Source: Candidatus Omnitrophota bacterium
GTDB taxonomy: Bacteria > Omnitrophota > Gorgyraeia > Zapsychrales > Zapsychraceae
Assembly (NCBI GenBank): GCA_015233115.1
Contig: JADFYJ010000007.1
Coordinates: forward strand, 40,885-104,884
DNA: 64,000 nucleotides
Direction: 5' to 3'
The notes beneath the pieces were generated by a model. That model was given only the letters and a program-made list of their open reading frames with translations, did no database searches and had not been told where the DNA came from. The translations under genes were made by a program, and so were the position numbers. Below, piece after piece: positions 35,529 through 58,312 of this stretch; the stretch's first letter is position 1, and each line of letters starts with the position of its first letter.

Positions 35529-35745
35529 GCATGTAGTATGTCGTATGTGGTATGTAGCAAAAACAAAAAACGTAGAAGAAAATTAATAGGCTGTCATTCC
35601 CGCGAAAGCGGGAATCCAAAAAAAAAATTATTTATTACTGGATCCCCGATTTAAACACTCGGGGATGACAAAACGAACTTTTCGACTTATTTTAAATTTC
35701 ACTTTCGTTTTTCTCGCTACATACCACATACGACATACTACATGC
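35529..35745 (+). repeat. Inverted oligo-repeat pair (gcatgtagtatgtcgtatgtggtatgtagc / gctacataccacatacgacatactacatgc) enclosing the double-hairpin element at 35592-35670
   Basis: Near-perfect 30-bp reverse-complement arms, read directly. Confidence 0.75.
35592..35670 (+). repeat. Double-hairpin repeat element, copy 1 (tgtcattcccgcgaaagcgggaatcca...tggatccccga...tcggggatgaca)
   Basis: Three copies share more than 85% identity in the hairpin modules. Hairpin 1 is tcccgc-GAAA-gcggga (GNRA loop); hairpin 2 is ccccga-N8-tcgggg; the outer tgtcat/atgaca closing pair is conserved. Confidence 0.8.
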
Positions 35746-35759
35746 TTTAAAGGAGTTCT

Positions 35760-36260
35760 ATGGATATCTACGATTATGCCATGCAATTAGAAAAAGAAGG
35801 CGAGGATCTTTATAAAAAATTTGCTGATACGACAAACGATCCGATGTTAACTAATATTTTTACTTGGCTGGCCCAACAGGAAAAACAGCACTATGACATA
35901 TTTAAAAAAATGAAAGAAGATCAGCCGATCCGTTTAGATCCGCCGGTTTCATTCATAAATGATGTTAAAAACATATTTTCTGAATGGAAAAAACAAAAAG
36001 TACCATCACTCGCCACTCAAGCACAGGCTGATGTTTACCGGACGGCGTTGACTGTTGAACAAAAAAGTATTGATCTTTACACTAAAGATGCGATTCTTAT
36101 TCATGAACCTGAAAAAGAAAAAATTTTTCTTCGTCTGGCGTCAGAAGAAAAAAAACATTTTGTCATAGTTGAAAATATTATTGAATTTATCAGTAAGCCT
36201 GAACACTGGGTGGAACACGCCGAATTCACCCATGATTTGGAAAAAGATTATTATTTATAA
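35760..36260 (+). CDS. Ferritin-like/rubrerythrin-family domain protein
   Basis: ExxH pairs (QQEKQHYD, EEKKHFV) on a four-helix bundle pattern. Confidence 0.5.
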   Translation: MDIYDYAMQLEKEGEDLYKKFADTTNDPMLTNIFTWLAQQEKQHYDIFKKMKEDQPIRLDPPVSFINDVKNIFSEWKKQKVPSLATQAQADVYRTALTVEQKSIDLYTKDAILIHEPEKEKIFLRLASEEKKHFVIVENIIEFISKPEHWVEHAEFTHDLEKDYYL

Positions 36261-36273
36261 AAAAGCGGTTTTT

Positions 36274-36347
36274 AGTTGTTGGTTGGTGGTTGTTGGTAAA
36301 AAATTCGATTCACTTTTCCAAAAACCAAAAACAATCAACCATAAACC
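36274..36347 (+). repeat. Inverted oligo-repeat pair (agttgttggttggtggttgttggt / ccaaaaaccaaaaacaatcaaccataaacc)
   Basis: G/T-rich arm and its A/C-rich approximate reverse complement, read directly. Confidence 0.6.
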
Positions 36348-36467
36348 AATATTTCCAAATTTATTTAATAAGTCTTGACGATTTCTAATTATGCGCAACA
36401 ATAGCATAATTAACATTTCGATGGATGATAGATGATGGCTTAACCACAAACCAACCGTATTTATCTG

Positions 36468-37430
36468 ATGAATCGCCCTTACCATAATCCGACAAATAAT
36501 TATAATCAGCGCCGTTCTATGCAGCGTCCAGCGTATCATCCGCCGGTTCGCAATTTAAGCGACGCCGAGAAAAAATTCATGAGCGGAACAGTCATTGATC
36601 CATGCCCACGGATCCGCTTAGAAGACGGCTCTGACAAACTCAGCATGCGCGCCATGGATTTGATTTGTCCGATCGGCATGGGACAGAGGGGATTGATTGT
36701 CGCGCCGCCCGGATCAGGGAAAACCACCTTTCTTAAAGATATTTGTCAAGCCGTCATTAAAAGCTGTCCACAAATCAAACTGTATTGCCTGCTGATTGAC
36801 GAAAGGCCGGAAGAAGTCACTGACTTTAAACGCGCGGTATCAGCAGAAATCCGCTCATCGTCTTCTGATCAGAGCTATGATCAACATGTGGCGGTCGCTG
36901 ATGAATTAATGAGGCAAGTGGTCAGCGAAGCAGGGAATGGAGAGAATGTGATGGTGTTAATTGATTCACTGACTCGTCTTTCCAGAGTCCATAACGCGGA
37001 GCAGCGTAACAGCGGCAGGACGTTATCTGGCGGCATGGATGCCCGCGCGCTTGAAGTCCCCAGACGTATTTTTGGTTCAGCCCGTAAAATCGAAAACGGA
37101 GGATCACTTTCCATTCTGGCTACTATTTTAATCGAAACCGGCAGCCGCATGGATGAAGTGATATTTGAAGAATTCAAAGGCACAGGGAACATGGAAATTG
37201 TACTTTCCCGTGAAATCGCTAACCATAGAATTTATCCAGCCATTAACATTAGCCGCAGTGCCACCCGCAAAGAAGAATTGCTTTTAAGCCCTGATGAGCT
37301 TGAACCTGTCCGCAATATCAGGCGTGCCTTAATCGGATTAAACCAGGTTGAAGCCGCCCAAACCTTGGTTGATATGCTTCGAAAATTTCCCACCAATAAA
37401 GAACTTCTGCAACGACAAAGTACAGAGTAG
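36468..37430 (+). CDS. rho: Transcription termination factor Rho, lacking the N-terminal OB-fold RNA-binding domain
   Basis: GQRGLIVAPPGSGKTT (Walker A), LIDERPEEVT, Q-loop and R-loop regions and a C-terminal GTGNMEIVLSR are all present. Only about 45 residues precede the ATPase core, against about 130 in canonical Rho. Confidence 0.8.
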   Translation: MNRPYHNPTNNYNQRRSMQRPAYHPPVRNLSDAEKKFMSGTVIDPCPRIRLEDGSDKLSMRAMDLICPIGMGQRGLIVAPPGSGKTTFLKDICQAVIKSCPQIKLYCLLIDERPEEVTDFKRAVSAEIRSSSSDQSYDQHVAVADELMRQVVSEAGNGENVMVLIDSLTRLSRVHNAEQRNSGRTLSGGMDARALEVPRRIFGSARKIENGGSLSILATILIETGSRMDEVIFEEFKGTGNMEIVLSREIANHRIYPAINISRSATRKEELLLSPDELEPVRNIRRALIGLNQVEAAQTLVDMLRKFPTNKELLQRQSTE

Positions 37431-37600
37431 AGAGTACAAAGTACAGAGTAAAAAACAAGACAAAATATTTTAAAAAATATAATTATAAAATCTAAAAATT
37501 TTTTTAAATTTCGATCCAAATCAACTTATTTGCTCACTCCAATTTAATCTATTTTTTTAATTTTCACTCTGTACTCTGCGTACTCTGCGTCTCTGTACTG
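37419..37600 (+). repeat. Inverted oligo-repeat pair (agtacagagtagagagtacaaagtacagagta / cactctgtactctgcgtactctgcgtctctgtactg) flanking a 110-bp AT-rich spacer; the left arm overlaps the rho stop
   Basis: Reverse-complementary gtacagagta units, read directly. Confidence 0.7.
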
Positions 37601-37683
37601 TATTTGTAACTCTTGACAGTCGCGGGTCTTTGGATATAATATTTGATATAAGCTATTTAAAACATTAACTTTAGGAGGGGATC

Positions 37684-37890
37684 ATGGCAACATTAAACAA
37701 GGAAGAATTACTTAAAAACCCAAAAGTCAAAGCAGAAATTGACCGATATAAATGGTGCGAAAGCGAAAAAGCCGGACATGATATCGGTATTGATAAAGCT
37801 GTCAATGACTGGTTTAAAATTCATGCTGAAAAATGGGTAGCCAAAAATCTACCTGCGCCTAAAAAAACTCCGACATTTAAATTATTCTAA
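37684..37890 (+). CDS. Small hypothetical protein (68 aa)
   Basis: Strong RBS ggagggg; KWCESEKAGHDIG motif not assigned to a family. Confidence 0.5.
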   Translation: MATLNKEELLKNPKVKAEIDRYKWCESEKAGHDIGIDKAVNDWFKIHAEKWVAKNLPAPKKTPTFKLF

Positions 37891-37946
37891 GCTATAGCAT
37901 TTCGGACATTAGAAACGAGGGGCACAAAACTTAATAAGCTAGTTTA

Positions 37947-38018
37947 TAGTTGTTGGCTTGTAGTTGTTAGCTATCAAATTTTTTTCTCCAAACACCAAAA
38001 ACAATCAACCATCAACAA
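37947..38018 (+). repeat. Inverted oligo-repeat pair (tagttgttggcttgtagttgttagc / ccaaacaccaaaaacaatcaaccatcaacaa)
   Basis: Same unit family as 36274-36347. Confidence 0.6.
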
Positions 38019-38054
38019 TAAATATTTTACTGTTAAGTATTGTGTCCCCGTTAA

Positions 38055-38807
38055 CTAATAAGCAATCAAATCTTTAATAACTTCACCTGCCATAATAAGG
38101 CCTGCAACTGACGGCACAAAAGATATGCTTCCAGGAATGCTCCTACGGGAGGTACATTTGCGTACTGTGCCTTTAGGGCAGATACAGTTAATCTGACAAT
38201 TTGCATCGTCCGCTTCAAGAGGTTTAATAACTTCTTCCAGGGAATAAACAACTTTAAGTGCCGTTATTCCTCTTATACGTAATTCTCTGCGCATAACTTT
38301 ACAAAGAGGGCAGGTAGAGGTTGAAAACAAATCTGCCACTTGAAACCGGGTAGGATCAAGTTTGTTTCCCGCGCCCATGCAACTAATGACCGGAATATTC
38401 ATTTCTTTAGCCCGGATCACAATATCAATTTTCGCGGTGACTGTATCAACCGCATCTACGATATAATCGTAATCCTTACGGATTAAATTCTCGCCGCATT
38501 CAGGCAAATAAAAGGTTTGAAATATTTCCACTTCAGCGTGCGGATTAATCTCCAAAATTCTTTCTTTCATCACTTCGACCTTGAATCTACCTACAGTTTT
38601 TCTGGTCGCGTGTAATTGTCGATTAATATTGGTCAAACAAATCCGGTCATCATCTACCAAAACAAATTTTCCCACACCGGATCTCACTAATCCTTCAACC
38701 GTAAAACTACCGACACCTCCAATACCAAATATTGCCACTTTAGATGTCTTAAGTTTTTTCAATGCATCTTTTCCGATTAACAATTCAGTTCTAGAAAATT
38801 CGTGCAT
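38055..38807 (-). CDS. tcdA: tRNA threonylcarbamoyladenosine dehydratase (ThiF/MoeB-family E1-like, TcdA/CsdL)
   Basis: GIGGVGS Rossmann motif and a short ThiF-fold with a Cys-rich C-terminus, matching the TcdA architecture. Confidence 0.7.
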   Translation of the reverse strand: MHEFSRTELLIGKDALKKLKTSKVAIFGIGGVGSFTVEGLVRSGVGKFVLVDDDRICLTNINRQLHATRKTVGRFKVEVMKERILEINPHAEVEIFQTFYLPECGENLIRKDYDYIVDAVDTVTAKIDIVIRAKEMNIPVISCMGAGNKLDPTRFQVADLFSTSTCPLCKVMRRELRIRGITALKVVYSLEEVIKPLEADDANCQINCICPKGTVRKCTSRRSIPGSISFVPSVAGLIMAGEVIKDLIAY

Positions 38808-38849
38808 ATAAACCTTTTTTTCAGTAAAATATGTTATACTTTTTTAATT

Positions 38850-39110
38850 ATGAACATTATCTGGGAAAAAGACACAGAATGCAAATTTAAAGAACTCCTG
38901 GAAAAAATTCCCGTGTTTATGCGGAGCTTTGCCGAGGAGAAGGTTTCCAAAAGGATCAAGATTATTCTCGAGCAAGATCAACGCGCTGAAATTACCGAAA
39001 AAGATCTGGTCGACGCGTTTTTTAAAGAAACTCCTTTTGGTTTTCATGGCCCCATGAAAACAGACATGAATAATGCGGGTATTGATTATACAAAATATGG
39101 ATATAAATGA
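38850..39110 (+). CDS. PCP_red (BchB C-terminal-like) domain small protein
   Basis: WEKD...ELLEKIPVFMRSFAEEKVSKRIKII...ITEKDLVDAFFKE resembles standalone PCP reductase-family domains. The start is moved to MNIIW to avoid overlap with the divergent tcdA. Confidence 0.45.
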   Translation: MNIIWEKDTECKFKELLEKIPVFMRSFAEEKVSKRIKIILEQDQRAEITEKDLVDAFFKETPFGFHGPMKTDMNNAGIDYTKYGYK

Positions 39111-39112
39111 AG

Positions 39113-39176: not shown

Positions 39177-39180
39177 TTAA

Positions 39181-39906: not shown

Positions 39907-39961
39907 AAAATCCCCCTTTACAGGCACAAAAAAATCTGGTATAAATGGCTTCCATTTTAAT

Positions 39962-40330: not shown

Positions 40331-40342
40331 TTTATAAATTTT

Positions 40343-40478
40343 GTAAGTGGTAAACGTGGCAAAGGCAGTAAAGGTGATTGAATGGCGATTCATGAATCGC
40401 CCACTAAAAAAATATCGTTTTTTCAATTATCTGTTTTTATTACCTTTACCTCGTTTACCACCTTTATCACCTTTACAA
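40343..40478 (+). repeat. Inverted oligo-repeat pair (gtaagtggtaaacgtggcaaaggcagtaaaggtgat / tacctttacctcgtttaccacctttatcacctttacaa) with a central perfect 18-bp palindrome ggcgattcatgaatcgcc (40384-40401)
   Basis: Read directly from the sequence; lies upstream of tRNA-Gly. Confidence 0.7.
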
Positions 40479-40487
40479 CTTATTCGT

Positions 40488-40558
40488 GCGGGCGTAGTTC
40501 AGTGGTAGAATGCAAGCCTTCCAAGCTTGTTACGTGGGTTCGATTCCCATCGCCCGCT
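40488..40558 (+). tRNA. tRNA-Gly (anticodon TCC)
   Basis: Acceptor gcgggcg/cgcccgc, anticodon stem caagc/gcttg, loop cttccaa, T-loop ttcgatt. Confidence 0.85.
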
Positions 40559-40669
40559 TTTTTTCCCGGAAAGGGAATCGAAGGGAGCGGAGCAAGATGC
40601 GACGAATAGGAGCATCTGGCTTGCGAAGCGAGTGGCCGACCCGAAGGGCGCCGATTCCCATCGCCCGCT
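40559..40669 (+). ncRNA. tRNA-Gly-linked 3' element: hairpin (gatgc-GACGAATAGGAG-gcatc) + gcgagtggccgacccgaag + ggcgcc + duplicate of the last 17 nt of tRNA-Gly + T-run
   Basis: Same architecture as the tRNA-Tyr element. The 3' end repeats gattcccatcgcccgct, followed by tttttt. Confidence 0.55.
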
Positions 40670-40701
40670 TTTTTATTTCATCATCCACCTACGGCTTTCA
40701 T

Positions 40702-43104: not shown

Positions 43105-44028
43105 ATGTCCGATTTATTCAATCATATCCATAAGGATTCCCCTGCCAAAATTATCAGCGTGAGCCGGCGCACAGATATTCCCGCGTTTTATACTGATTGG
43201 TTCATAAACCGGGTCAGAGCAGGTTTTTGTGAAGTCGCCAATCCGTTTAATCCCCAGCAGGTCGCCACAGTCAGCTTAAAACCTGAACATGTCATTATTT
43301 TTATTTTTTGGACCAGAGATCCAAAACCATTAATGAAATATCTCCCTGAACTTGACGAAAAAGGTTATCAATACTATTTTCTTTACACAATTACGGGCTA
43401 TCCCAAGCCTTTGGAAAAATCATCGCCTTCCTATGATGTCGCCATAAAAACATTCCGGGAACTCAGCCGAATGATCGGCAAAGAGAAAGTTATCTGGCGA
43501 TACGATCCATTGATTTTATCTAACTTAACTCCAGTTAAATGGCACATGGAAAACATTTCACAATTTTTAAATGATCTAAGCGGTTATACGGACCGCATGA
43601 TGATCAGCATTGTTGAACCGTACAAAAAAACGCTGAACCGGCTGAAAACTGAAACAGATGATCATTTCACTTTAATGACAGACACGTTTTCGTCTGAACC
43701 ATATGCCCCCATTTTTAAATATATAGGCGAGACTGCTCCCCAAAAAGGCATCACACCTATGACGTGCGCCCAGCGCTATGACCTGAAACAATTTGGAATC
43801 CAACATGGTTCATGCATAGACACGGAACTGATTAATAAAATTACCGGAATCAAACGGACTTTTGCGAAAGATCCGTATCAGCGCGAATTTTGCCATTGTG
43901 CCGCGGCCAAAGATATTGGAGCGCCAAATACTTGTTTATTTGGATGCCCGTATTGTTATGCTACAATCAGTCATAAAACAGCGGTTAACAATTATAGGAA
44001 ACATGATAAAATAGCACCACATATGTAA
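43105..44028 (+). CDS. DUF1848 domain protein with a C-terminal Cys cluster
   Basis: ISVSRRTDIPAFYTDWF N-terminus, and a C-terminal CHC...CLFGCPYCYA motif. Confidence 0.45.
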   Translation: MSDLFNHIHKDSPAKIISVSRRTDIPAFYTDWFINRVRAGFCEVANPFNPQQVATVSLKPEHVIIFIFWTRDPKPLMKYLPELDEKGYQYYFLYTITGYPKPLEKSSPSYDVAIKTFRELSRMIGKEKVIWRYDPLILSNLTPVKWHMENISQFLNDLSGYTDRMMISIVEPYKKTLNRLKTETDDHFTLMTDTFSSEPYAPIFKYIGETAPQKGITPMTCAQRYDLKQFGIQHGSCIDTELINKITGIKRTFAKDPYQREFCHCAAAKDIGAPNTCLFGCPYCYATISHKTAVNNYRKHDKIAPHM

Positions 44029-44044
44029 AATTATTGTCATTCCC

Positions 44045-44128
44045 GCGAAAGCGGGAATCCAAAAATAAATTATATTTTATTATTACTGGATCCCCGAATC
44101 AAACACTCGGGGATGACAACTTTAAGTA
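44045..44128 (+). repeat. Double-hairpin repeat element, copy 2
   Basis: tgtcattcccgcgaaagcgggaatcca...tggatccccgaatcaaacactcggggatgaca, near-identical to copy 1 apart from the spacer. Confidence 0.8.
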
Positions 44129-44149: not shown

Positions 44150-44899
44150 ATGAACTTTTTAAAATCATTACTTGCCTGGTTTTTACGAATAATTTTATTG
44201 CTCTGTATTATCGCAATCTGCGGCTATAAAATTTTAACCTCTTCAAAATGGACGGAAAAATTTGCCGGGCAAATTATCAACCGTCAAGTCACTAACGCCA
44301 GTCTTAAAGATCTAAAAATCAAAAAAATAATTCTCACCCCGAATGATTATATTTGGGAAAAAGTCTCTTTTCATGTGACAACCCAAGGCCAGGATTTCTT
44401 CGTCAACGTTGACCGCGCACAAATTCACAATTTAACTTCTGAAAAATGGGACGTATTCATCACAGACTTACACTTAACTAATACCAATATCTCGCTCAGC
44501 AATGCCAATTTATATGGCAAATTTCAATGGAAGGGACCCCTGACATTTAAAGGCCTGGTTTATGCCAAAGTCCTGAATGACAATTATAAAGGAATAGTTG
44601 CCGGGCCCCTGGCATTTAAAGGAACAGCAAAATCAATCTCCAAATTTAATGCTCATTTAACCTCAACACAGGGGGATATAGCCTCTTCCTTAATCCGCTA
44701 TTTAATGGGAGACGTGAACAATAATTTATCTTTTCTGCCTTTTGAAAACCAACTCAACAAGAAAAAATTTATACGGCTTGAAAATTTAAACCTTACCATT
44801 CATAATAGAACCCAAGATAAATTTGAGATTCAGATGTCATTAAACAGTAATGAATTAAATTTAAAACTGAATCCGACCTTAACCATTAATTTGAGGTAA
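44150..44899 (+). CDS. Hypothetical membrane-anchored protein (possibly a YdbH-like fragment)
   Basis: N-terminal TM; positioned upstream of the ynbE and ydbL homologs as ydbH is in E. coli, but much shorter. Confidence 0.35.
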   Translation: MNFLKSLLAWFLRIILLLCIIAICGYKILTSSKWTEKFAGQIINRQVTNASLKDLKIKKIILTPNDYIWEKVSFHVTTQGQDFFVNVDRAQIHNLTSEKWDVFITDLHLTNTNISLSNANLYGKFQWKGPLTFKGLVYAKVLNDNYKGIVAGPLAFKGTAKSISKFNAHLTSTQGDIASSLIRYLMGDVNNNLSFLPFENQLNKKKFIRLENLNLTIHNRTQDKFEIQMSLNSNELNLKLNPTLTINLR

Positions 44900-46746: not shown

Positions 46747-49700
46747 ATGAATTTAAAAAATTTTAAACAAACTCAGTTTTTCCGTCTCATTGCTTGCTGG
46801 ATTTTATGCAATTTTTTAATTGCATCTTTTATGCCGCCGCAAGGGGCTTGGGCGCAGACTGTTCTGAATTTGCCAATTCCAGGCACAATGCTGACAACTA
46901 CGCCAGCATATACGCCAATCATGGTAAAAGGTCTGCAGATTCACCCTGAAAACCCGCTGTTATTCGATTTTATTGTTGATACAGGCAAGTCCGGGCTTAA
47001 AGTAGATAGCTCCAATTTTAAAACCGAATCTCAAAAACTTATTAAATATTTTTTAGCTTCCCTGACTATCAAAGAGGAAAATTTATGGGTCAACTTATCG
47101 CCCTATGAAAAAAACCGGATTATGCCTAAAGATTTGAGTCAAACCGAACTCGGACGGGATATGCTGGCGCAAGATTATATTTTAAAACAATTAACCGCGT
47201 CTTTAATTTATCCTGAAAAAGAATTAGGGAAAAAGTTTTGGGACGCCGTATATTTAAAAATTTATGAAAATAGAAGAGAGAAAATAGAAGATAGACCAAC
47301 ACCAAAAAACAAATCGACAACAACGATCGCTTCTAATCTATCTTCTCCCGTCTATCATCTATTATCTGATAATTTAGACCTTCCAACCAACATATTGAGC
47401 AAAGTCTGGATCGTGGCAGATAAAGCTAAAGTGCTTGAAAAAAACAATACAGCCTATATTGTCGGCGCACATCTAAAAGTGCTTTTGGATACCGATTATT
47501 TGGCAAAACAAATGGCACCGGCATCCAAAAGCACAGCCCAAGAACAAATAGAGCCGCAAATCATGCGTCAAATCATCATTCCTGAAATCGAACGCGAAGT
47601 GAACGAAGGCGCGCATTTCGCCCAATTACGCCAAATGTTTCATTCCATGATCTTGGCCGCTTGGTATAAACAAACCATTAAAAATTCACTGCTTAATCAA
47701 GTGTATAGCAATAAATCAAAAACAAATGGCGTTCAGGTTGACGATCTTGCTATTAAAGAAAAAATTTATCAGCAATATTTAGACGCTTATAAAAAAGGTG
47801 TGTTTAACTATATCAAAGAAGATTATGATTCTGCCAACCAGCAAATAACCTCCCGAAAATATTTCTCCGGAGGAGAAGATTTCGCGATGTTAAAAAATGT
47901 CGAACGAGAAACTAAACTTGTAAAAGGAGATCAAAATCCGGACGTCCCAATCGGTGATACCGCCTTGGTATCCTTTGATATTCAAAAAGCTACAAACCCT
48001 GATCGTGCCCTGCTCAACACTTCAGAGTTAACCATGTCCAAATTCTCGACCACAGAAGAACCGGGAATCAAAATTATTGATCATATTATATTTCATTGGG
48101 AAGGGAAAGAAGTGCTGTTGCTTTTAAATGCTGCCCAAAAAATAACTAAAGGGTATAGTTTAATTTATGATGTTTTTATTGATCAAAAAGCAACAAAAAC
48201 TCTGACCGTTCATCTTCATCCAGTAAATGATAAAATGATTGTTAAATCGTTTGATTATATTTTTGAAGAAAACAAAGACTTCGAAAACGTGCTTCATCAC
48301 TGGCTTAACTCACAAATACACTTACCCTGGGATGGCTCTTTCTTTTCTAAATCAACAACTGAACCAACAACTGCGCCAACTCCAGAACTAACGATTTATC
48401 CTAAAACCATATTGCCTAAAGCAACACATCACTTTACATTACAGCATGAAGCGTCTGCTATATTCGAAGAGCAAGGAACAGAACATCCGCTTAAACTTAC
48501 TATAGAAAGAGCTGATGAACGCTATCAGAAACATGTATATTTTGTCAAAAAAGAAAATGGCCATGGTGAACAATCCTATACCCTTCCTCACGAGCCTGAT
48601 GTAGCGGACAGCATTCCGGCTATTTTTTGGAGATACATAGGAGACAGTGATGAAACCGAAATTGTTTTTAACAATAAATCGACGAACCCGTTTATCATGA
48701 CCCTCACAAATCCCATTGATCAAGCCATGATGGATTCATCAAACGATTATTTAACAGCTAACCTGCCATTTTCAATAGCGGAAAGCATTGTTTCGACTGT
48801 TTTAAAACAAAAAAATTTTACTTGGCAAACTAAAGACAAATTAAAAAACGAATTGTTAAATTACATTATCCAACACGTGAATTCAGATAAATTAATAACT
48901 TTTGTAGAAAATGTCCTGACCAATGCTTTAACTCAATATGTCAGCATACCAGAAATTAATCCGCAAAATCCAGCAGAAACTGAGCATTGGCGCATTAATA
49001 ATGAACGAAAACGTCAGATTTTTGAATTTCTCCAAGGGATAAATTCTAGAATTGTAAAAATCGGCCGTTTAAGTGATAAAAAAATTGCTGTCAGCCTTTG
49101 GATCACTCCCATTATTGCCAAACAAACTCAATTTGAACCATATTTTGCTGAAAATATTTTATGGTCCCAAGTGGCATCTGGTGTCGCAGAACAGACTATT
49201 CGTAACCTCCAAGATAGTTTTGTTAAATTAAAATTATTTGATATTAAAAACGACAAACTAACGCTTTCCACTATTAGTAAAAACGAACATGATGAAAATA
49301 TACGCATCTTAAATTTTGATTCCCCTGAAAACTCTGCTAAATTGGAGATTCGCTATAAAGATCCTGAGATGAATGGCAAAGGGGAGAGATCATTATCTTA
49401 CAAATTTATTGTCAAAGGCCAACCCCGAGCTATAAAATTTATTAAAATATTTTCAAATAAAGAAGAAGCAAGGCAAATATTTGACTACCAATATCTGCCC
49501 AATAGACCTACGGATAAAACGTTGAAGTTATTGACAACAGACATACTTTTTCATGGAAAAATGATAGACGCGGCTATGGCCGCTAAAGCAGAAATAAAAC
49601 AAATCAATGGCGGCATTGATCTCAATTCCAAAAATATGAGCATAGATATTACTAACCCTTTGACTATCTCAGGGTCTAAGCCTCTGATTAAATTTGACCC

Positions 49701-49788
49701 GGGTATGATCGCGGAATTTGAAGCTGGCGATTTTTCAGGGGTAACTTTTAAGATAATCAGCATCATACCCATTCAAAATACCCTTTGA
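46747..49788 (+). CDS. Large secreted hypothetical protein (1013 aa); the N-terminal 350 aa are paralogous to the ORF at 62723
   Basis: Signal peptide. The conserved block LIKYFLASLT..ENLWVNLSPYEK.RI.PK...QTE.GRD.LAQDY.LKQ.TASL.YPE is shared with the window-end ORF. Confidence 0.6.
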   Translation: MNLKNFKQTQFFRLIACWILCNFLIASFMPPQGAWAQTVLNLPIPGTMLTTTPAYTPIMVKGLQIHPENPLLFDFIVDTGKSGLKVDSSNFKTESQKLIKYFLASLTIKEENLWVNLSPYEKNRIMPKDLSQTELGRDMLAQDYILKQLTASLIYPEKELGKKFWDAVYLKIYENRREKIEDRPTPKNKSTTTIASNLSSPVYHLLSDNLDLPTNILSKVWIVADKAKVLEKNNTAYIVGAHLKVLLDTDYLAKQMAPASKSTAQEQIEPQIMRQIIIPEIEREVNEGAHFAQLRQMFHSMILAAWYKQTIKNSLLNQVYSNKSKTNGVQVDDLAIKEKIYQQYLDAYKKGVFNYIKEDYDSANQQITSRKYFSGGEDFAMLKNVERETKLVKGDQNPDVPIGDTALVSFDIQKATNPDRALLNTSELTMSKFSTTEEPGIKIIDHIIFHWEGKEVLLLLNAAQKITKGYSLIYDVFIDQKATKTLTVHLHPVNDKMIVKSFDYIFEENKDFENVLHHWLNSQIHLPWDGSFFSKSTTEPTTAPTPELTIYPKTILPKATHHFTLQHEASAIFEEQGTEHPLKLTIERADERYQKHVYFVKKENGHGEQSYTLPHEPDVADSIPAIFWRYIGDSDETEIVFNNKSTNPFIMTLTNPIDQAMMDSSNDYLTANLPFSIAESIVSTVLKQKNFTWQTKDKLKNELLNYIIQHVNSDKLITFVENVLTNALTQYVSIPEINPQNPAETEHWRINNERKRQIFEFLQGINSRIVKIGRLSDKKIAVSLWITPIIAKQTQFEPYFAENILWSQVASGVAEQTIRNLQDSFVKLKLFDIKNDKLTLSTISKNEHDENIRILNFDSPENSAKLEIRYKDPEMNGKGERSLSYKFIVKGQPRAIKFIKIFSNKEEARQIFDYQYLPNRPTDKTLKLLTTDILFHGKMIDAAMAAKAEIKQINGGIDLNSKNMSIDITNPLTISGSKPLIKFDPGMIAEFEAGDFSGVTFKIISIIPIQNTL

Positions 49789-49821: not shown

Positions 49822-50167
49822 TTTGACTTAATCCGACAAGTTTTCTTTTGCATTTATGCGATAATTTTGTATAATAACGATCATTTTTTTGATAGAGTAT
49901 ATATCCATTAACAAGTAATAATAATTAAATTAAAATTATATCTGGACAAGTCATAGACCTGTCCAAAAAATAGGACTGTTGAAAAATGCTTAGATACAAG
50001 GCATTTTCTGAATGAGCGCGGAGGCCGTTTTTCTGGATATGTTATTGAAACCGGCACTACGCTAAGATATTAAATATTTATATCTTTTGTCGACGTACAA
50101 TAGTTATATATTGATAGGCGAATGAAGAAATAACGCCGTAGATAAGCGTTTTGCAACAGTCCTTTAT

Positions 50168-50362: not shown

Positions 50363-50782
50363 ATGGGATTCTTTGGAAAAGAAACACCTAAAAGCCCGAG
50401 CTCTGATAATCACATTGACAGACGGCATTATCCCAGATTTCAAAAAAATTTTATTTTGAAATATTTTCCTAAAGATAACCCCGCAGATAAAATTGAAACA
50501 ACTCAGCTAAAAAATATCAGCTTTGGAGGGATGTGTTTTATTACCTGCCGAAGATTTGATAAGGGCACAGAACTGCTTCTGGAATTACAAACACCTTATC
50601 TTTCTGAAGTCACTTATTTAGAAGGAGAAGTTCAAGAATCACGTCAAAAAGTTTCGGATATACTATTTGAAACACGTTTAAGTTTAAAAAATATGACCCC
50701 ACAGGCAGAATTTCTGATCGGCAAAATGGTTGAGTTCTTCGCCAATGAAGAAAAGAAAAAAAAGGCAGAAAACCATGAATAA
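50363..50782 (+). CDS. PilZ domain protein
   Basis: RRHYPRF...NISFGGMCF matches the RxxxR / (D/N)xSxGG c-di-GMP-binding motifs. The track ORF's upstream extension overlaps tRNA-Pro and is rejected. Confidence 0.55.
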   Translation: MGFFGKETPKSPSSDNHIDRRHYPRFQKNFILKYFPKDNPADKIETTQLKNISFGGMCFITCRRFDKGTELLLELQTPYLSEVTYLEGEVQESRQKVSDILFETRLSLKNMTPQAEFLIGKMVEFFANEEKKKKAENHE

Positions 50783-52064
50783 AATCAATATCGGTCTTAT
50801 TGGCTTTGGAACAGTCGGTTCCGGGGTCGTAGAGTTTCTTCACACGAAAAAATCTTATATAGCCAATAAATACAACACAGAATTTACGGTTAAAACTGTA
50901 TGCGACTTGTACATTACGCCAGATAAAGTGAAAAAATTCGGAAAAATCAAGACTACAAAAAAATATCAGGAAATCCTCGAAGATCCGGAAATTGATGTGG
51001 TCGTTGAACTGATCGGCGGATTGCATCCAGCCAAAGAAATTGTATTTGGCTCGCTCAATAATGGTAAAGATGTGGTCACGGCTAACAAAGCTTTAATTTC
51101 GCATCACGGGAAAGAATTATTCGAACTTGCTCAGCAAAACGGATTACGACTGTTTTTTGAATCAGCAGTCATGGCGGGTGTACCGACCATTAAAACTGTT
51201 ACTGAAGGCATTATTGGCAATGAATTTAACGGGATCTACGGCATTTTAAACGGTACTTGCAATTATATTCTGACTCAAATGTCAGATAACAACTGTTCTT
51301 TCCCAGACGCGCTTAAGAAAGCTCAGGAGAAAGGTTATGCCGAAGCCGACCCTACGCTCGACATCAGCGGAGGGGACACAGCGCATAAACTTTTAATTAT
51401 GGCCTACTTGGCTTTTGGGAAATTTATCAAATTCAATGAAATTTATACAGAAGGTATTTCGCAAATCTCGCAGAACGATATTGAATACGCGGAACGTTTA
51501 GGTTTAACCATTAAATTATTAGCCATAGCCAAAAAAGTAAATAATACCATTGAAGCACGAGTTCATCCAACGTTGATTCCCAAAGAGCATCCTTTGGCAT
51601 CAATCAATAGCGTCTTTAATGGCATGTTATTAGACTCAGACATGCTGGGTAAAGTGCTATTATCTGGGGAAGGCGCAGGCAAAATGGCAGCCGCTTCAGG
51701 CGTAGTCAGTGACCTCATCAATTTAGCGCATAATCCGGCTCAGCCGATTTTGTCCAATTTAACATATGAAAATAAAGCCTTAACCGTAAAGAAGATCGAC
51801 GATGTGATCAGCAAATTTTATTTACGTTTGCTCGCTGTTAATAAACCCGGCGTTTTATCAAAAATTACCGGAATATTAGGTAAACACGACATCAGCATCA
51901 ATTCTGTGACGCAAAAAGAACAAGACGCCAAATCACCGGTTCCGGTTATTATGCTGACAGACAGCACCTCTGAACGAAATATGCGCAACGCTCTAAAAGA
52001 AATTGAAAAAATGGCTGTAATCAAAAGCAAGCCGGTAGCGATTAGAATGGAGACTTTACAATGA
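50775..52064 (+). CDS. hom: Homoserine dehydrogenase
   Basis: [16 protein letters not shown]-binding motif, a conserved catalytic region and a C-terminal ACT domain. The start is approximate (MNKINIG). Confidence 0.85.
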
Positions 52065-53113
52065 AGTGGACAGGTTTAATTAATAAATACCGTGAATTTT
52101 TACCCGTCACAGATAAAACTCCGGTTGTCACTTTAAATGAAGGAAACACGCCGCTCATTTCATCTCCATACTTTTCTTCTCTAACCGGCATGGAAGTTTA
52201 TTTAAAATATGAAGGGCTTAACCCAACCGGATCATTTAAAGACCGCGGTATGACCATGGCGATTTCCAAAGCTAAAGAAGAAGGCGTTAAAGCGGTCATG
52301 TGCGCGTCAACCGGCAATACCTCTGCATCAGCGTCCGCTTACGCGGCGAGGGCAGGGATGAAAAGTTTTGTGCTGATCCCAGACGGCAATATCGCGCTCG
52401 GCAAACTCGCGCAAGCCATGATTCACAATGCCACGGTTATTGCCATCAAAGGCAATTTTGATCAGGCCCTGGAAATGGTGGTAGAGGTCACTAAAAAATA
52501 TCCAATCGCGTTAGTTAATTCGATCAATCCGTTCCGTATTGAAGGACAAAAAACCGCAGCTTTTGAAATTTGCGATTTTCTGGATGATGCGCCTGAGTTC
52601 CATGCCATTCCAGTCGGAAATGCCGGCAATATTACGGCCTATTGGAAAGGTTATAAAGAATATAAACAAGTTGGAAAATCAAAACAGCTTCCCAAAATGC
52701 TGGGATTTCAGGCCGCAGGTTCCGCGCCGATAGTACTTGGTCATCCGGTTAAGAAACCTGAAACCATTGCCACAGCGATTAAAATTGGCAATCCGGCCAG
52801 CTGGAAATTTGCTGAAGCCGCGCGCGATGAGTCCAAAGGTTTAATTGACATGGTCACAGACGATGAAATTTTGGAAGCTTATAAACTTTTAGCCAAATTC
52901 GACGGAGTTTTTGCTGAACCGGCATCAGCCGCATCCGTTGCTGGCATCATTAAATTGAATAAAAGCGGGTATTTTAAAGGCCAAAAAGGGCGTATCGTGT
53001 GCACATTAACCGGCCACGGCTTAAAAGATCCCAATATCGCGTTAAAATGCGTTGGTGAACCAATGGTCATTAATCCTGACATGAACGAACTTATAAAAAC
53101 TATCGGAATATAA
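52061..53113 (+). CDS. thrC: Threonine synthase
   Basis: PLP-binding SFKDRG motif and fold-type II PLP enzyme blocks. Confidence 0.85.
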
Positions 53114-53116
53114 AAA

Positions 53117-53335
53117 GTCACAAAGACACAAAGTCACAAGGTCACAAAGGGAAATAAAGATAATAAAAGCAATTAATAAAAAAAATGCAAACATTTAAAT
53201 TATTAAGAAGTCGCGTTTAGTTTTTCATAAAATTTAAACAAATACTTTTTTGAAAGCGAATATAGATTTAATTTTTGTTATTCTATTTTTCATTTCTTAA
53301 ACATTGTGACTTTGTGACCTTGTGTCTTTGTGACC
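53117..53335 (+). repeat. Inverted oligo-repeat pair (gtcacaaagacacaaagtcacaaggtcacaaagg / ttgtgactttgtgaccttgtgtctttgtgacc) flanking a 150-bp AT-rich spacer between thrC and coaB
   Basis: Reverse-complement arms with about two mismatches, read directly. Confidence 0.75.
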
Positions 53336-53342
53336 TCTAAAT

Positions 53343-53993
53343 ATGCAAAATAAATCTGTTCTTATTACTTGCGGCCCAACCTGGACGCCGATTGATGACA
53401 TGCGGGTGATCAGCAATAAATCGAGCGGAACGCTGGGGCATATCCTTGCGGATTTATTCTGCAAAAAAGGATTTAAAGTTACTTTGCTGGAAGGACCGGT
53501 GCAGGAGAGGATGAAACCGGTAAAGAATCTAACGATTATCCCATTTCAGTATTATAGCGAATTTCGCGCGGAACTTTTAAAAGCGCTTAAACAAAATTTT
53601 GATATTGTCGTGCACGCGGCAGCTGTGTCTGATTATCAATTAAAGAAACCATTTAACCAAAAAGTCAGTTCTCATTTAAAGGAACTTAAACTCACTTTAG
53701 TGCCGACGGAAAAATTGATTTCTTTGATCAAACAGAAAAGCCCAAAAAGTTGTCTGGTAGGATTTAAGCTGGAATCATCAATTGCCGCAAAATCCGCCAT
53801 TAGAAAAACTGAAGATTTATTTAACCAGGCGCAATGTGATTTAGTCATTTTAAATTCATTAACCGGAAACAAATATTACGGCGTAATTTTAAACAAAAAC
53901 CGCGAAATCCTCGCACAAGCATCAAGCCGCGAAGAAATCGCGAATCACTTGATCAAAATTTTTAACCAAAAACCAACAAATAACGACCTGTAG
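53343..53993 (+). CDS. coaB: Phosphopantothenate--cysteine ligase (standalone CoaB)
   Basis: VLITCGPTWTPIDDMRVISNKSSGTLG matches the CoaB/DFP consensus (ITAGPT.EPID.VR.ISN.SSG). No CoaC flavoprotein domain is fused. Confidence 0.65.
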   Translation: MQNKSVLITCGPTWTPIDDMRVISNKSSGTLGHILADLFCKKGFKVTLLEGPVQERMKPVKNLTIIPFQYYSEFRAELLKALKQNFDIVVHAAAVSDYQLKKPFNQKVSSHLKELKLTLVPTEKLISLIKQKSPKSCLVGFKLESSIAAKSAIRKTEDLFNQAQCDLVILNSLTGNKYYGVILNKNREILAQASSREEIANHLIKIFNQKPTNNDL

Positions 53994-54057
53994 ATTTTTA
54001 TATTTTATTTTTTGACCAAAAACCATCAACCAAAAACCATTAGATTTTTATATTAAA

Positions 54058-55260
54058 ATGAAATACATCGTAATCGTTCCAGACGGCATGACAGATCTGC
54101 CGATTGAATCTTTAGGCGGTAAAACACCGCTGCAAGCTGCCCGTACCACGAATATGGACTATATGGCACAGCATGGTATGTGCGGCATGGTACAGACTAT
54201 TCCGCAAGGGATGCAGCCAGGATCTGATGTCGGCAACATGTCTTTAATGGGCTATGATCCACTCGAATACCATCCGGGCCGGGCGCCTTTGGAAGCCGCC
54301 AGCATGAATATAGAGCTTCAGCCTGAAGAGGTTGCTTTCCGCTGCAATTTAATTACCATGAGCGATCATGTCATGAAAGATTACAGCGCCGGCCATATCA
54401 AAGATAAAGAAGCCAATGTCCTTATTGAATCTCTCAGTAAAGAAATTGATCTTCCTTTTGGAAAATTTTACGCCGGAAAAAGTTACCGTCATTTACTCGT
54501 TTTAAAAGTAAGAGACCCGGAAGCATTTTGCACGATTACTACTGTGCCGCCGCATGATATTTTAAATCAGGATATCCGCGATTACGCGCCTAAAGGGCCG
54601 CATGCGGAGGTTCTGATCAGCATCATGGAACGGGCTTACGCGATTTTACAAAAACATCCTATCAATGATGTCAGGATCGATCTGAAAGAAAATCCGGCGA
54701 ATATGATCTGGTTATGGGGCCAAGGCATGAAACCCCAGCTTCCTAATTTTAAAGAAAAATTTGGATTAACCGGCGGAGTCATTTCCGCGGTAGATCTTGT
54801 CAGAGGCATCGGGAAATTAGCCGGCCTGGAGATTATTGACGTCCCAGGCATAAATGGTTATTATGATACAAATTATCTGGGTAAAGCTGAATACGCCCTT
54901 AAGGCTCTGGAAAAAAATAATTTTGTTTTTATCCACATTGAAGCACCGGATGAAGCTGGTCACAATGGCGATATCGAAAATAAAATTTTATCTTTAGAAA
55001 AAATTGATCAAGATGTTATCGGAACAATCCTTAACCGCGTTGATCCTCATGACACCCGAATCTTGGTCGTTGCGGATCACCCGACTCCGGTAGAAGTACG
55101 CACGCATACGTCTGAACCCGTTAATTTCTTGATGTTTGGAAAAGGCTTTGAACCAAACGGTGCCCCTGATTATTCAGAAAAATCATGCTCAGAACGCGAT
55201 TTAAAATTTGCTAACGGCGAAGACATGTTAAACTTTTTTATAAAAAAATATTTAGACTAA
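54058..55260 (+). CDS. apgM: Cofactor-independent phosphoglycerate mutase, ApgM (archaeal-type) family
   Basis: IVPDGMTD...G.TPL..A.TPN.D N-terminus and metal-binding HIEAPDEAGH motif. Confidence 0.7.
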   Translation: MKYIVIVPDGMTDLPIESLGGKTPLQAARTTNMDYMAQHGMCGMVQTIPQGMQPGSDVGNMSLMGYDPLEYHPGRAPLEAASMNIELQPEEVAFRCNLITMSDHVMKDYSAGHIKDKEANVLIESLSKEIDLPFGKFYAGKSYRHLLVLKVRDPEAFCTITTVPPHDILNQDIRDYAPKGPHAEVLISIMERAYAILQKHPINDVRIDLKENPANMIWLWGQGMKPQLPNFKEKFGLTGGVISAVDLVRGIGKLAGLEIIDVPGINGYYDTNYLGKAEYALKALEKNNFVFIHIEAPDEAGHNGDIENKILSLEKIDQDVIGTILNRVDPHDTRILVVADHPTPVEVRTHTSEPVNFLMFGKGFEPNGAPDYSEKSCSERDLKFANGEDMLNFFIKKYLD

Positions 55261-55288
55261 ATCCGAATTAAAGAAGAAAGGAAGACGC

Positions 55289-56512
55289 ATGGCAAAGAAG
55301 TCTATTGTGGTAATGAAATTCGGCGGCTCTTCCGTCGCTAATGTCGAGCGCATGCAGAACGTCGCGCGCAGAATAGTCGAGACCAAGACCAAGAATACTA
55401 ATGTCGCGGTCGTGGTTTCCGCGATGGGGGATACGACGGATGAATTTGAAGAATTGGCATTTAAATTAAGCAAAAATCCTCCAGTGCGCGAAATGGACAT
55501 GCTGATGTCAACCGGCGAGCAAATTTCCTCTGCACTGTTGGCGATCGCGGTTAAAGAATTAGGACACGACGCGGTTTCTTTTAACGGGAACCAGGTGGGT
55601 ATTGTGACTGATACTAATCATTCCAAAGCCATGATCCAAACGATCAGCGGGGCACGGATTAAGGACGCGTTTAAAGATAATAAAATTGTTATTGTGGCCG
55701 GTTTTCAAGGCATGACGGAAAACAATGAAATCACCACACTCGGCCGCGGCGGATCAGATTTGACGGCAGTTGCGTTGGCTAAAGCTTTGGATGCGGATGT
55801 CTGCGAAATTTATACAGATGTAACTGGCATTTATACGACGGATCCGCGCATTGTCAAAGAAGCGCGTAAACTCAAACAAATCACTTTTGACGAAATGTTG
55901 GAAATGGCTTCTCTAGGGGCGCAAGTTATGCAAGCGCGTTCTATTGAAGTTGCCAAAAGGTTTAACATACCGCTCCATGTTCGCTCAAGTTTAAGTAAGG
56001 AGGAAGGAACCATGATCGTGAAGAAATTAGAAAAAATTGAAGACATTTGCGTCACCGGCGTTACCTTAAATAAAAATGAAGCGAAGATTACAATTTGCGC
56101 GGTTCCGGATAAACCCGGCATTGCCGCCCAGATTTTCGACGAAGTTTCCAAAGCGGATGTTAACGTTGACCTGATTGTCCAGAACGTCAGCCGCGATAAG
56201 ACGACAGATATTTCTTTTACAGTGCCAAAATCTGAATTAGCAAAAGCGACGGCAGCCACTCGCAAGATTTCTGATAAAATCGGTGCTGGTGATGTACTTG
56301 AAGCGAGCAATATTGCCCGCGTATCCATTGTCGGTTCTGGCATGCGCTCTCATCACGGAATTGCAGCCGCCATGTTTAAAACTTTGGCAGACAATAAAAT
56401 CAACATTGATATGATTTCGACGTCAGAAATCAGTATTCAGTGCATCATCAATAAGGAAGACGCGGAAAAAGCTGTCAGTGTTTTGCATAAAGCGTTTGAA
56501 TTAGAAAAATAA
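55289..56512 (+). CDS. lysC: Aspartate kinase
   Basis: VMKFGGSSV, conserved kinase blocks and two C-terminal ACT domains. Confidence 0.85.
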   Translation: MAKKSIVVMKFGGSSVANVERMQNVARRIVETKTKNTNVAVVVSAMGDTTDEFEELAFKLSKNPPVREMDMLMSTGEQISSALLAIAVKELGHDAVSFNGNQVGIVTDTNHSKAMIQTISGARIKDAFKDNKIVIVAGFQGMTENNEITTLGRGGSDLTAVALAKALDADVCEIYTDVTGIYTTDPRIVKEARKLKQITFDEMLEMASLGAQVMQARSIEVAKRFNIPLHVRSSLSKEEGTMIVKKLEKIEDICVTGVTLNKNEAKITICAVPDKPGIAAQIFDEVSKADVNVDLIVQNVSRDKTTDISFTVPKSELAKATAATRKISDKIGAGDVLEASNIARVSIVGSGMRSHHGIAAAMFKTLADNKINIDMISTSEISIQCIINKEDAEKAVSVLHKAFELEK

Positions 56513-56614
56513 TAAAAACAGTATGTGGCATGTCGTATGTAGTATGTAGTAAAAAAAGCGATTGGTTTATAAAATTAACAACCAAAAACCAACAACCAAA
56601 AACCATAAACCCAA

Positions 56615-58207
56615 ATGGCTAATAAATTAAGATCTAATCATCGACAAATTATAATTTACGACACGACATTACGTGATGGTTCTCAGACCGAAGGAGTATC
56701 GTTCACAGTTAACGATAAGCTCAAGATTACTGAGAAACTTGACCAGTTTGGCGTTCATTATATTGAAGGCGGATGGCCGGGTTCTAATCCTAAAGATAAA
56801 GACTATTTTAAAGATGTCCAATCGCTTAAATTAAAAAACGCTAAAATCGCGGCTTTTGGTTCAACCCGCAGGGTTAAGATCAAAGCCAGTGAAGATGTTA
56901 ACTTGGTCGAATTAGTGAAATCCAAAGCTCCTACCATTACAATTTTCGGAAAATGCTGGGACTTGCATGTGACAGACGTGATCCGTACTACTTTGGCAGA
57001 AAACTTAGAAATGATCGCTGACTCAGTCGGCTATTTAAAGAAAAATAAAAGAGAAGTATTTTTCGATGCTGAACATTTTTTTGACGGATACCGCAATAAT
57101 CCAGACTACGCGCTTAAAGCCATCCAGGCCGCTGAACAAGCTGGCGCGGATTGTATCGTGCTTTGTGATACCAACGGCGGAACACTGCCGTCTCAAGTCC
57201 GTTCGATTATTGAAGAGGTTAAAAAACACGTTAAAGCGCCGCTGGGAATTCATGCTCACAATGACATTGATATGGGTGTGGCCAACAGTATCGCGGCTAT
57301 AGAAGCTGGCTGTAACCACGTCCAAGGCACGTTTAATGGCCTGGGTGAAAGATGCGGTAATGCCAATCTTTGCACGATCATTGGTATTCTGGCGACGAAA
57401 CTAAATTTAAAATCGATTCCTGAGCGCAACTTGGAAAACATGAAACAGGTCGCCTATTATGTCAGCGAAATCAGCAATTCCGCGTTAAAAGATAATGCCG
57501 CGTTTGTCGGACATTCCGCGTTTACGCATAAAGCCGGTGTGCATATCGACGCAGTAATTAAAAACCCGTTAGCATATGAACACAGTGATCCAGTTTTTGT
57601 CGGTAACCATCGCCGGTTCATTGCTTCTGAATTGGCAGGAAAAATGCCAATCCTGATCAAAGCGCAGAAAATGAATGTGGATCTGGATAAAAAATCTCCG
57701 GAAGCGAAAAAAATTCTGGAAGAGCTTCAGGTTAAAGAAAATAACGGCTATCAGTTTGAAGCAGCGGACGCGTCCTTTGAATTATTCGTGAAACGTTCGT
57801 TACAAAAATATCCGCCGTTTTTTAAATTGGAAGGTTTTAAAGTCTCGTCTGAAAAACGCTTTGACGGCAAAATTTTTGCTGAAGCATCGGTACGTTTAAA
57901 AGTGAAAAGCGAAGAATTGTTTTGTGCGGCTGAAGGCGATGGTCCGGTGGATTCTCTGGATAAAGCTTTACGGCAAGCCTTGACTAAATTTTATCCAAGG
58001 TTAAAAGAGATGCACTTAAGCGATTACAAAGTCCGCGTTTTAGACACCAAAGACGGCACCGCCGCGAAAGTACGCGTTCTCATTGAATCACAGGATGAAA
58101 CCGATACCTGGACCACAGTCGGCGTCCACGAAAATATCATCGAAGCCAGTTGGGAAGCTTTGACAGATAGTATTGAATATAAATTATTGAAAGATAAGAA
58201 AAAATAA
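56615..58207 (+). CDS. cimA: Citramalate synthase / 2-isopropylmalate synthase (LeuA family)
   Basis: LRDGSQ and HAHND motifs plus a C-terminal LeuA dimerisation/regulatory domain; the 530-aa length suggests CimA. Confidence 0.75.
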   Translation: MANKLRSNHRQIIIYDTTLRDGSQTEGVSFTVNDKLKITEKLDQFGVHYIEGGWPGSNPKDKDYFKDVQSLKLKNAKIAAFGSTRRVKIKASEDVNLVELVKSKAPTITIFGKCWDLHVTDVIRTTLAENLEMIADSVGYLKKNKREVFFDAEHFFDGYRNNPDYALKAIQAAEQAGADCIVLCDTNGGTLPSQVRSIIEEVKKHVKAPLGIHAHNDIDMGVANSIAAIEAGCNHVQGTFNGLGERCGNANLCTIIGILATKLNLKSIPERNLENMKQVAYYVSEISNSALKDNAAFVGHSAFTHKAGVHIDAVIKNPLAYEHSDPVFVGNHRRFIASELAGKMPILIKAQKMNVDLDKKSPEAKKILEELQVKENNGYQFEAADASFELFVKRSLQKYPPFFKLEGFKVSSEKRFDGKIFAEASVRLKVKSEELFCAAEGDGPVDSLDKALRQALTKFYPRLKEMHLSDYKVRVLDTKDGTAAKVRVLIESQDETDTWTTVGVHENIIEASWEALTDSIEYKLLKDKKK

Positions 58208-58235
58208 AGAAACAAAAACTAAATTATTATTGGTA

Positions 58236-58312
58236 TGTCATTCCCGCGGAAGCGGGAATCCAGAAATTCTTCTTCTATCAATGGATCCCCGACTAAAACC
58301 TCGGTGATGACA
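58236..58312 (+). repeat. Double-hairpin repeat element, copy 3
   Basis: tgtcattcccgcgGaagcgggaatcca...tggatccccgactaaaacctcggtgatgaca. The loop is GGAA (still GNRA), and the stem-2 change g>t preserves pairing as a G-U wobble. Confidence 0.75.

Follow-up and report, generated by a model that had tools for sequence, protein, structure and literature searches.

The 64-kb window analysed here (the whole stretch of 64,000 nucleotides from the contig JADFYJ010000007.1 of a Candidatus Omnitrophota bacterium) carries three copies of an intergenic element of about 80 bp, and these elements are ordinary members of a known repeat family and not a new RNA element. In particular, they quite probably represent inverted pairs of repetitive extragenic palindromic (REP) sequences with a CGTC/TGTC tag, which belong to the family of the CGTC-1 REPs, the dRS3/NTS repeats and the Ssn-related motifs (SRM) and are probable substrates of the GIY-YIG nuclease Ssn. 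As publications already cover the hairpin family with its tag-stem-tail anatomy and its organisation in dimers as well as the partner enzyme, there is little new biology in this assignment. It does put an end to the reading of the element as an RNA motif, and it extends the range of NTS/SRM-type repeats and of repeat-flanked ssn genes to the Omnitrophota and several other candidate phyla. What is new here is the host phylum, a long-loop type of arm, and the heterodimer of a canonical and a long-loop arm. The long-loop arms, of the form ATCCCCGA-(8-9 nt)-TCGGGGAT, escape the current SRM search strings and are of relevance for mining Ssn enzymes for new specificities on single-stranded DNA (ssDNA).

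Matches to the 21-mer TCCCGCGRAAGCGGGAATCCA lie at 35598-35618, 44041-44061 and 58242-58262, in all cases on the + strand, while 100 dinucleotide-preserving shuffles of the window lead to an expectation of 0.00 matches; the three copies in the same orientation that had been described in an earlier reading of the letters alone (the original prediction) are thus real. Homology among the copies extends from TGTCAT to ATGACA(A), and the flanks outside are unrelated. Copy 2, which had been placed at 44045-44128, accordingly has to be moved by 10 nt to 44035-44118. The pattern of the right arm matched at 35639-35671 and 44087-44119, and the diverged right arm of copy 3 was read directly. The elements are composed as follows:

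35592-35670, copy 1, whole element (homology limits)
35592-35618, + strand, left arm of copy 1, a canonical CGTC-1 REP with the dRS3 pattern and an NTS-like sequence: TGTC (35592-35595), ATTCCCGC (35596-35603), GAAA (35604-35607), GCGGGAAT (35608-35615), CCA (35616-35618)
35619-35638, AT-rich variable spacer of copy 1, between the two tails
35639-35670, - strand, right arm of copy 1, a long-loop SRM-like variant composed of TGTC, ATCCCCGA, a 9-nt loop, TCGGGGAT and CCA; on the + strand TGG (35639-35641), stem (35642-35649), loop (35650-35658), stem (35659-35666), GACA (35667-35670)
44035-44118, copy 2, whole element (homology limits)
44035-44061, + strand, left arm of copy 2: TGTC, ATTCCCGC, GAAA, GCGGGAAT, CCA
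44087-44118, - strand, right arm of copy 2; on the + strand TGG, ATCCCCGA, a 9-nt loop, TCGGGGAT, GACA
58236-58312, copy 3, whole element (homology limits)
58236-58262, + strand, left arm of copy 3: TGTC, ATTCCCGC, GGAA, GCGGGAAT, CCA
58282-58312, - strand, right arm of copy 3; on the + strand TGG, ATCCCCGA (58285-58292), an 8-nt loop (58293-58300), TCGGTGAT (58301-58308), GACA

In each element two related hairpins are paired in inverted orientation, the tags pointing outward and the CCA tails inward; the right half is a diverged version of the left half in the opposite orientation and has the plan of tag, hairpin and tail in common with it. While the double hairpin noted originally is present, the element contains more than that, since the outer TGTC...GACA and the inner CCA...TGG pair as well. 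The GTC of the tag and the C of the tail are present on all six arms, and in a generic scan for a GTC followed by a hairpin starting with A these six arms were the sole matches in the 64 kb. The spacers between the arms (20-25 nt) are AT-rich and variable, as had been stated, differ also by indels, and occur nowhere else in the window. An interpretation of the hairpin with its CCA as a tRNA-like structure or a minihelix was rejected, as there is no match to a tRNA or an Rfam family and the CCA pairs with the TGG of the partner arm.

By comparison with the described families, the left arms have all the hallmarks of a CGTC-1 REP, for which the definition asks for a CGTC or TGTC tag (CCTC being allowed), a stem of 8 bp with AT at its start, a loop of 4 nt and CCA as the tail (Di Nocera 2013, PMC3733652): they show a TGTC tag, an 8-bp stem that starts with AT, a 4-nt loop and the CCA tail. 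The right arms have the stem and the tail of this family but a loop of 8-9 nt as compared to 4-5 nt in families 1-4 (PMC3733652), and can with respect to the loop be regarded as variants only. CGTC-1 REPs occur mostly as inverted dimers, heterodimers included, near the 3′ end of the upstream open reading frame (ORF) (PMC3733652), and the window likewise has three inverted pairs, all intergenic and 6-71 nt past + strand stop codons. A further likeness is that dimers have been described between unidirectional genes and that some of them are nested in larger palindromes; that study, however, covers five phyla and found no dedicated enzyme (PMC3733652). The 20-bp dRS3 pattern ATTCCCNNNNNNNNGGGAAT (ATTCCC-N8-GGGAAT) is matched by the left arms and not by the right ones (ATCCCC...GGGGAT), so that only one arm per pair fits. 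With dRS3/NIME (Parkhill 2000; Bentley 2007, PMC1797815) and with Rickettsia RPE-6 the elements share the alternation of a GC-rich hairpin with an AT-rich spacer; NIMEs, however, are dRS3 arrays around RS repeats of 50-150 bp, and in the window there are only single pairs with unrepeated spacers of 20-25 nt.

The 21-mer is by no means confined to this window. When the pattern TTCCCGCGNNAGCGGGAATCC was searched with one genome taken per species, at least 120 stretches of genome contigs proved to carry it. They represent at least 15 phylum-level lineages, and three metagenome-assembled genomes of Omnitrophota are among them. The lineages listed comprise Alpha-, Beta-, Gamma- and Deltaproteobacteria, Chloroflexota, Patescibacteria, Planctomycetota, Acidobacteriota, Omnitrophota, Elusimicrobia, Nitrospirae, Gemmatimonadetes, Zixibacteria, Latescibacterota, Armatimonadota, Vampirovibrionales and a Rickettsia endosymbiont. 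Among the matches listed, most have a [C/T]GTC tag together with the tail CCA, and for many of them a partner in inverted orientation lies at a distance of 20-60 nt; in 152 related matches the tag was CGTC in 82 and TGTC in 40 cases. Single arms without a partner exist in many genomes, and the heterodimer of the window type is found in at least 120 metagenome stretches. In addition, 116 stretches of IMG/VR contigs of viral or proviral nature (L242-L357) contain the 25-mer GTCATTCCCGCGNNAGCGGGAATCC; one of these, the 8.2-kb contig L296, carries seven copies of it.

These relatives also allow for an assessment of the constraint acting on the stem. In 44 distinct partner arms, the sequence of which is not fixed by the search pattern, two-sided changes occur in six of the eight stem pairs and 94% of the cells are paired, a pairing score that was reached by none of 500 shuffles and that lies far above that of slid registers, too. 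As the stem pairs covary beyond both controls, the hairpin is under selection. The covariation that the original prediction proposed to look for is therefore real, but a hairpin of ssDNA predicts it equally well as one of RNA.

The association of this type of hairpin with a GIY-YIG enzyme is already published (Chenal et al. 2025, Nat Commun, PMC11893778). In Neisseria the NTS has the 28-nt consensus CGTCATTCCCGCGMAVGCGGGAATCYRG, and SsnA, a single-domain GIY-YIG protein of 94 aa (cd10448), binds it as ssDNA only and cuts a few nt upstream, the C after the palindrome being critical for binding and the three preceding bases (GTC) for cutting (PMC11893778). Ssn is inactive on double-stranded DNA, on RNA and on the reverse strand, and SsnA does not bind the RNA form (PMC11893778). 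Binding and cleavage of ssDNA were demonstrated with the Neisseria and Wolbachia enzymes, and transformation of N. meningitidis by NTS-bearing DNA is lowered by SsnA (PMC11893778). Of the ssnA homologs, 71% are flanked by SRMs, and ssnA is present in 81% of the genomes in which SRMs number more than 200 (PMC11893778).

In line with these reports, clustering of the ORFs located within 1.2 kb of the arms (241 loci, 1.74 Mb) independently revealed one recurrent small family, namely GIY-YIG proteins (PF01541) of 92-109 aa encoded by nine genes at eight loci of unrelated lineages, with arms directly ahead of the ATG and past the stop codon. The reverse test led to the same association: five out of five Ssn homologs that were chosen by protein similarity and contig size alone turned out to be flanked by TGTC-hairpin-CCA arms. 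At one locus (L365) the arms flanking the ssn homolog include the exact left-arm sequences of the window, and at another one, which belongs to the Omnitrophota (L063), a dimer that combines the two stem types of the window pairs, ATCCCCGA/TCGGGGAT and ATTCCCGC/GCGGGAAT, is located 21 nt before the ssn ATG. The 21-mer is near-identical across distant phyla and the nucleases of about 95 aa are 70-80% identical, which suggests that enzyme and repeat have spread horizontally as a pair.

Among the protein matches listed, P0121-P0240 are Ssn-type GIY-YIG proteins with about 68-80% identity to the Omnitrophota query, and their named sources include a bacterium of the candidate phyla radiation (Wildermuthbacteria) and a Deltaproteobacterium. 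On two ENA contigs that encode P0138 (L362 and L363), two adjacent ssn-like GIY-YIG genes reside between a DEAD/ResIII helicase gene and uvrB. In L362 both of these neighbours are fragmented, and in L363 the helicase gene is intact and uvrB is in two pieces; such broken repair-gene neighbours recall that REPs have been reported to be enriched in repair genes.

As the GTC of the tag and the C of the tail are kept on both arms, the window copies are probably substrates of an Omnitrophota Ssn. Once the DNA becomes single-stranded, the tagged strand would fold into the hairpin, and an Ssn of about 95 aa would bind it and cut a few nt 5′ of the tag, as was shown for the family in Neisseria and Wolbachia (PMC11893778). 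Because the arms are inverted, one cleavable site would be offered by whichever strand is exposed. We infer from the conserved arms that this organism has an Ssn cognate to the copies; as there is no GIY-YIG ORF within the 64 kb, it is presumably encoded elsewhere in the genome. A target-site duplication, which was to be looked for at the copy boundaries, was found at none of the three copies (flanks GGC/AAA, TAT/ACT and GTA/ACT), and a mechanism without a DDE transposase thus fits. By analogy with REP/RAYT, the repeats were probably spread and are probably kept by the Ssn system, in a partnership that could be selfish or domesticated, and any effect on mRNA would then be a by-product.

Several observations weigh against this assignment and have to be set beside it. 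The left arms match 26 of the 28 positions of the NTS consensus each, but none of them matches it exactly: copies 1 and 2 deviate at positions 1 and 28, and copy 3 at position 1 and at the loop position M. There is also no exact match in the window to the SRM pattern HGTCWYN(0-2)YYVSBRHN(0-5)WNVSBRGN(0-2)RNCYNB. If its last base is left out, the left arms of copies 1 and 2 do match (0.16 matches expected by chance), the left arm of copy 3 misses at one loop base, and the long-loop right arms miss outright. In tag, stem start and tail these right arms still conform to the family, and they are abundant in metagenomes and flank ssn genes. Furthermore, only three copies are visible in the 64 kb, and no GIY-YIG gene was found in the window. 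With respect to the published NTS/SRM repeats (PMC11893778), the window elements also differ in that the tag starts with T instead of C, that the copies are isolated intergenic pairs instead of clusters around genes, and that the Omnitrophota are not among the host phyla shown.

A stronger version of the assignment, which we consider unlikely, holds that in this Omnitrophota lineage the copies are active, Ssn-driven mobile pairs of a canonical NTS arm and a long-loop arm, that each strand shows its own site, that the long-loop arm is read by a second Ssn specificity, and that insertion would proceed by cut-and-paste of ssDNA with a preference for the long palindromic brackets typical of the intergenic regions of this genome. 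The position of copy 1 inside a larger inverted repeat (see below) is the pattern cited for such bracket-preferring insertion.

The architecture of the copies is also reminiscent of REPINs, that is, REP doublets copied by a single-copy REP-associated tyrosine transposase (RAYT; IS200/IS605-like, Y1 HUH), which recognises the hairpin and a 5′ tetranucleotide on ssDNA. The elements fit the REPIN definition in having inverted REPs less than 130 bp apart (here 20-25 nt), covarying stems and no target-site duplication, and Bertels and Rainey treated the Neisseria 21-mer ATTCCCGCGCAGGCGGGAATC as a population of REPINs with a link to a Group 2 RAYT. More generally, they have in common with REP/BIME and REPIN-RAYT systems of E. 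coli and Pseudomonas the tagged inverted doublets and the recognition on ssDNA, and in both systems a small nuclease gene is flanked by its own repeats. However, the tag there is GTAG as opposed to the CGTC family here, the enzyme is a Y1 HUH transposase as opposed to a GIY-YIG nuclease, and REPINs have been described as lineage-specific, whereas the present hairpin is near-identical across phyla. In no species was a tyrosine transposase gene found to be flanked by CGTC repeats (Di Nocera, De Gregorio and Rocco, PMC3733652), and the gene family recurring next to the arms is GIY-YIG and not Y1. With two motif regular expressions and with phmmer, neither the window nor 121 loci yielded a HUH/Y1-like ORF, although with approximate phmmer queries (E. 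coli YafM and IS200 TnpA) and with RAYTs being single-copy genes this is a weak test. All in all, copying by a RAYT has a slim chance of being the explanation. Even less room is left for site-specific recombinases of the IS110/Piv type, for which the hairpins might mainly serve as attachment or target sites. Neisserial filamentous prophages have been reported to integrate into dRS3, and the 25-mer mentioned above is found in 116 IMG/VR contigs; but neither a recombinase nor a prophage is located at or beside any of the three copies, and such a use would be secondary and explain neither the origin of the repeats nor their flanking of Ssn genes, which makes this very improbable as the main role. 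The least probable of all is a classical miniature inverted-repeat transposable element (MITE) mobilised by a DDE transposase via the terminal inverted repeats TGTCAT...ATGACA. The TG...CA-type ends and the size of about 80 bp would suit it, but a target-site duplication is lacking, the interior is not conserved among the copies while the arms are, single arms stand alone in many genomes, and no transposase family recurs near the arms in the clustering of the 241 loci. The REP/MITE-like origin considered originally is nevertheless correct in that the arms are CGTC-tagged REPs, equivalent to the hairpins of dRS3, NTS and SRM.

The element could alternatively act as RNA, with its four-way-junction fold and GNRA loop being functional in an intercistronic stabiliser, a processing site, an attenuator or a small RNA, and the original prediction likewise saw constraint at the RNA level and proposed a terminator, a stabiliser or a small RNA. 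The three copies do reside between co-directional genes near the upstream stop codon, and the + strand folds as RNA with -27 to -33 kcal/mol (z-scores of -4 to -6.7). E. coli REPs can shield upstream mRNA from 3′ exonucleases. In addition, REPs are mostly found downstream of ORFs (Di Nocera, PMC3733652). However, the fold is at least as good on the opposite strand, which takes on the same four-way shape at a similar energy, and of 77 metagenome heterodimers compared with the orientation of both flanking genes (by crude ORF calling) 18 run with and 21 against them. None of the copies has a U-tract or a terminator-like site, the hairpins being followed by ATCCA(A)n or ATGACAA; promoter and terminator scans of the window gave nothing that coincides with the copies, and no Rfam family reached the gathering threshold in the window except for four tRNAs. 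While the GNRA loop is indeed conserved in these three copies, it is found across the family in only 24 of 44 and 21 of 43 arms, GAAG, GCAG, GAAC and GGAG being common otherwise, and among the cells without Watson-Crick pairing C·A is seen more often than G·T (10 versus 5). The G>T change in stem 2 of copy 3, thought to keep a G-U pair, actually breaks a pair: T58305 faces C58288, which results in a C·U mismatch on the + strand and in an A·G mismatch on the - strand. Finally, SsnA does not bind the RNA form of its motif (PMC11893778). A function as RNA is therefore about as doubtful as copying by a RAYT, and the assignment to the CGTC/TGTC-tagged REPs with Ssn as the probable partner is to be preferred.

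With respect to the gene setting, the original prediction of convergent gene ends does not hold, as all six flanking ORFs are on the + strand and thus co-directional. For copies 1, 2 and 3, respectively, the distance from the upstream stop codon is 71, 6 and 28 nt, and that to the next start codon 89, 31 and 117 nt. The neighbouring genes are:

Copy 1: a 113-aa ORF with no assigned function upstream and a rubrerythrin/ferritin-like gene downstream
Copy 2: a DUF1848 gene (43105-44028) upstream and a 249-aa ORF (start at 44150) downstream
Copy 3: the citramalate synthase gene cimA (stop at 58207) upstream and valS (start at 58430) downstream

Because copy 2 is located only 6 nt past a stop codon and 31 nt ahead of the next start, the copies are probably transcribed and may have a side effect on mRNA, e.g., on its stability. 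In the closest relative (L121, with 82% amino acid identity in CimA) the gap between cimA and valS is 0 nt and the element is absent; as the two genes abut there without a spacer, copy 3 is lineage-specific at this junction. L121 was nevertheless rejected as an empty site, the genomes being too diverged for defining insertion boundaries, and so was a comparison within the genome, in which the inverted repeat around copy 1 was aligned with a related one at 8250-8440 and the AT-rich cores aligned poorly. The gene order hom-thrC-DFP-apgM-lysC-cimA-valS is common to the window (50730-61054) and L121 (4538-14191), with junction gaps ranging from a 4-nt overlap to 39 nt in L121 versus 28-229 nt in the window, where most of these gaps are filled by oligo repeats, inverted brackets or the hairpin pair. 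The spacers are therefore to be seen as lineage-specific additions.

As had been noticed originally, copy 1 is nested in a larger inverted pair. This bracket is a separate feature of this genome and stands outside the hairpin repeat family, and further brackets are found in the window:

35528-35573 / 35701-35746, the bracket enclosing copy 1, inverted oligo-repeat arms of 46 nt that are 87% complementary and include a 31-bp perfect stem
8266-8290 / 8400-8424, bracket
14970-15003 / 15082-15115, bracket
37416-37466 / 37542-37578, bracket
40334-40378 / 40439-40483, bracket
47257-47295 / 47337-47375, bracket
49972-49997 / 50138-50163, bracket
53117-53158 / 53293-53334, bracket

The brackets consist of inverted arms of 25-46 nt around AT-rich spacers, most arms being built of oligo repeats of 7-8 nt. 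At the sites inspected (8266, 35528 and 53117) they start a few nt past a stop codon and end just before the next gene, and as RNA bracketed regions fold with -66 and -91.7 kcal/mol (z-scores of -8.6 and -11.7), one of them with a 31-bp perfect stem. The arms differ by site, and a GTATGT-type arm recurs at 8250, 35515 and 56495. The brackets could be processing stems of the RNase III type or a family of palindromic insertions. We know of no description of such brackets, and by enclosing whole intergenic spacers they are the most unusual feature in this neighbourhood, more so than the hairpin repeat.

Among the other repeats nearby are heptamer arrays of the CCAAAAA/CCAACAA type, on either strand, at 5331-5376, 36307-36352, 37977-38022, 53959-54054 and 56557-56616. 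The last 23 nt of a tRNA-Gly(TCC) gene and the T-run following it (CGATTCCCATCGCCCGCTTTTTT) are repeated exactly 111 nt downstream (40488-40558 and 40652-40674), which could be what is left of an attachment site that was duplicated by an integrated element. Finally, a 219-nt direct repeat with 77% identity connects 47026-47244, within a 1013-aa ORF (46747-49788), with 62963-63181, possibly reflecting a shared protein domain or paralogs.

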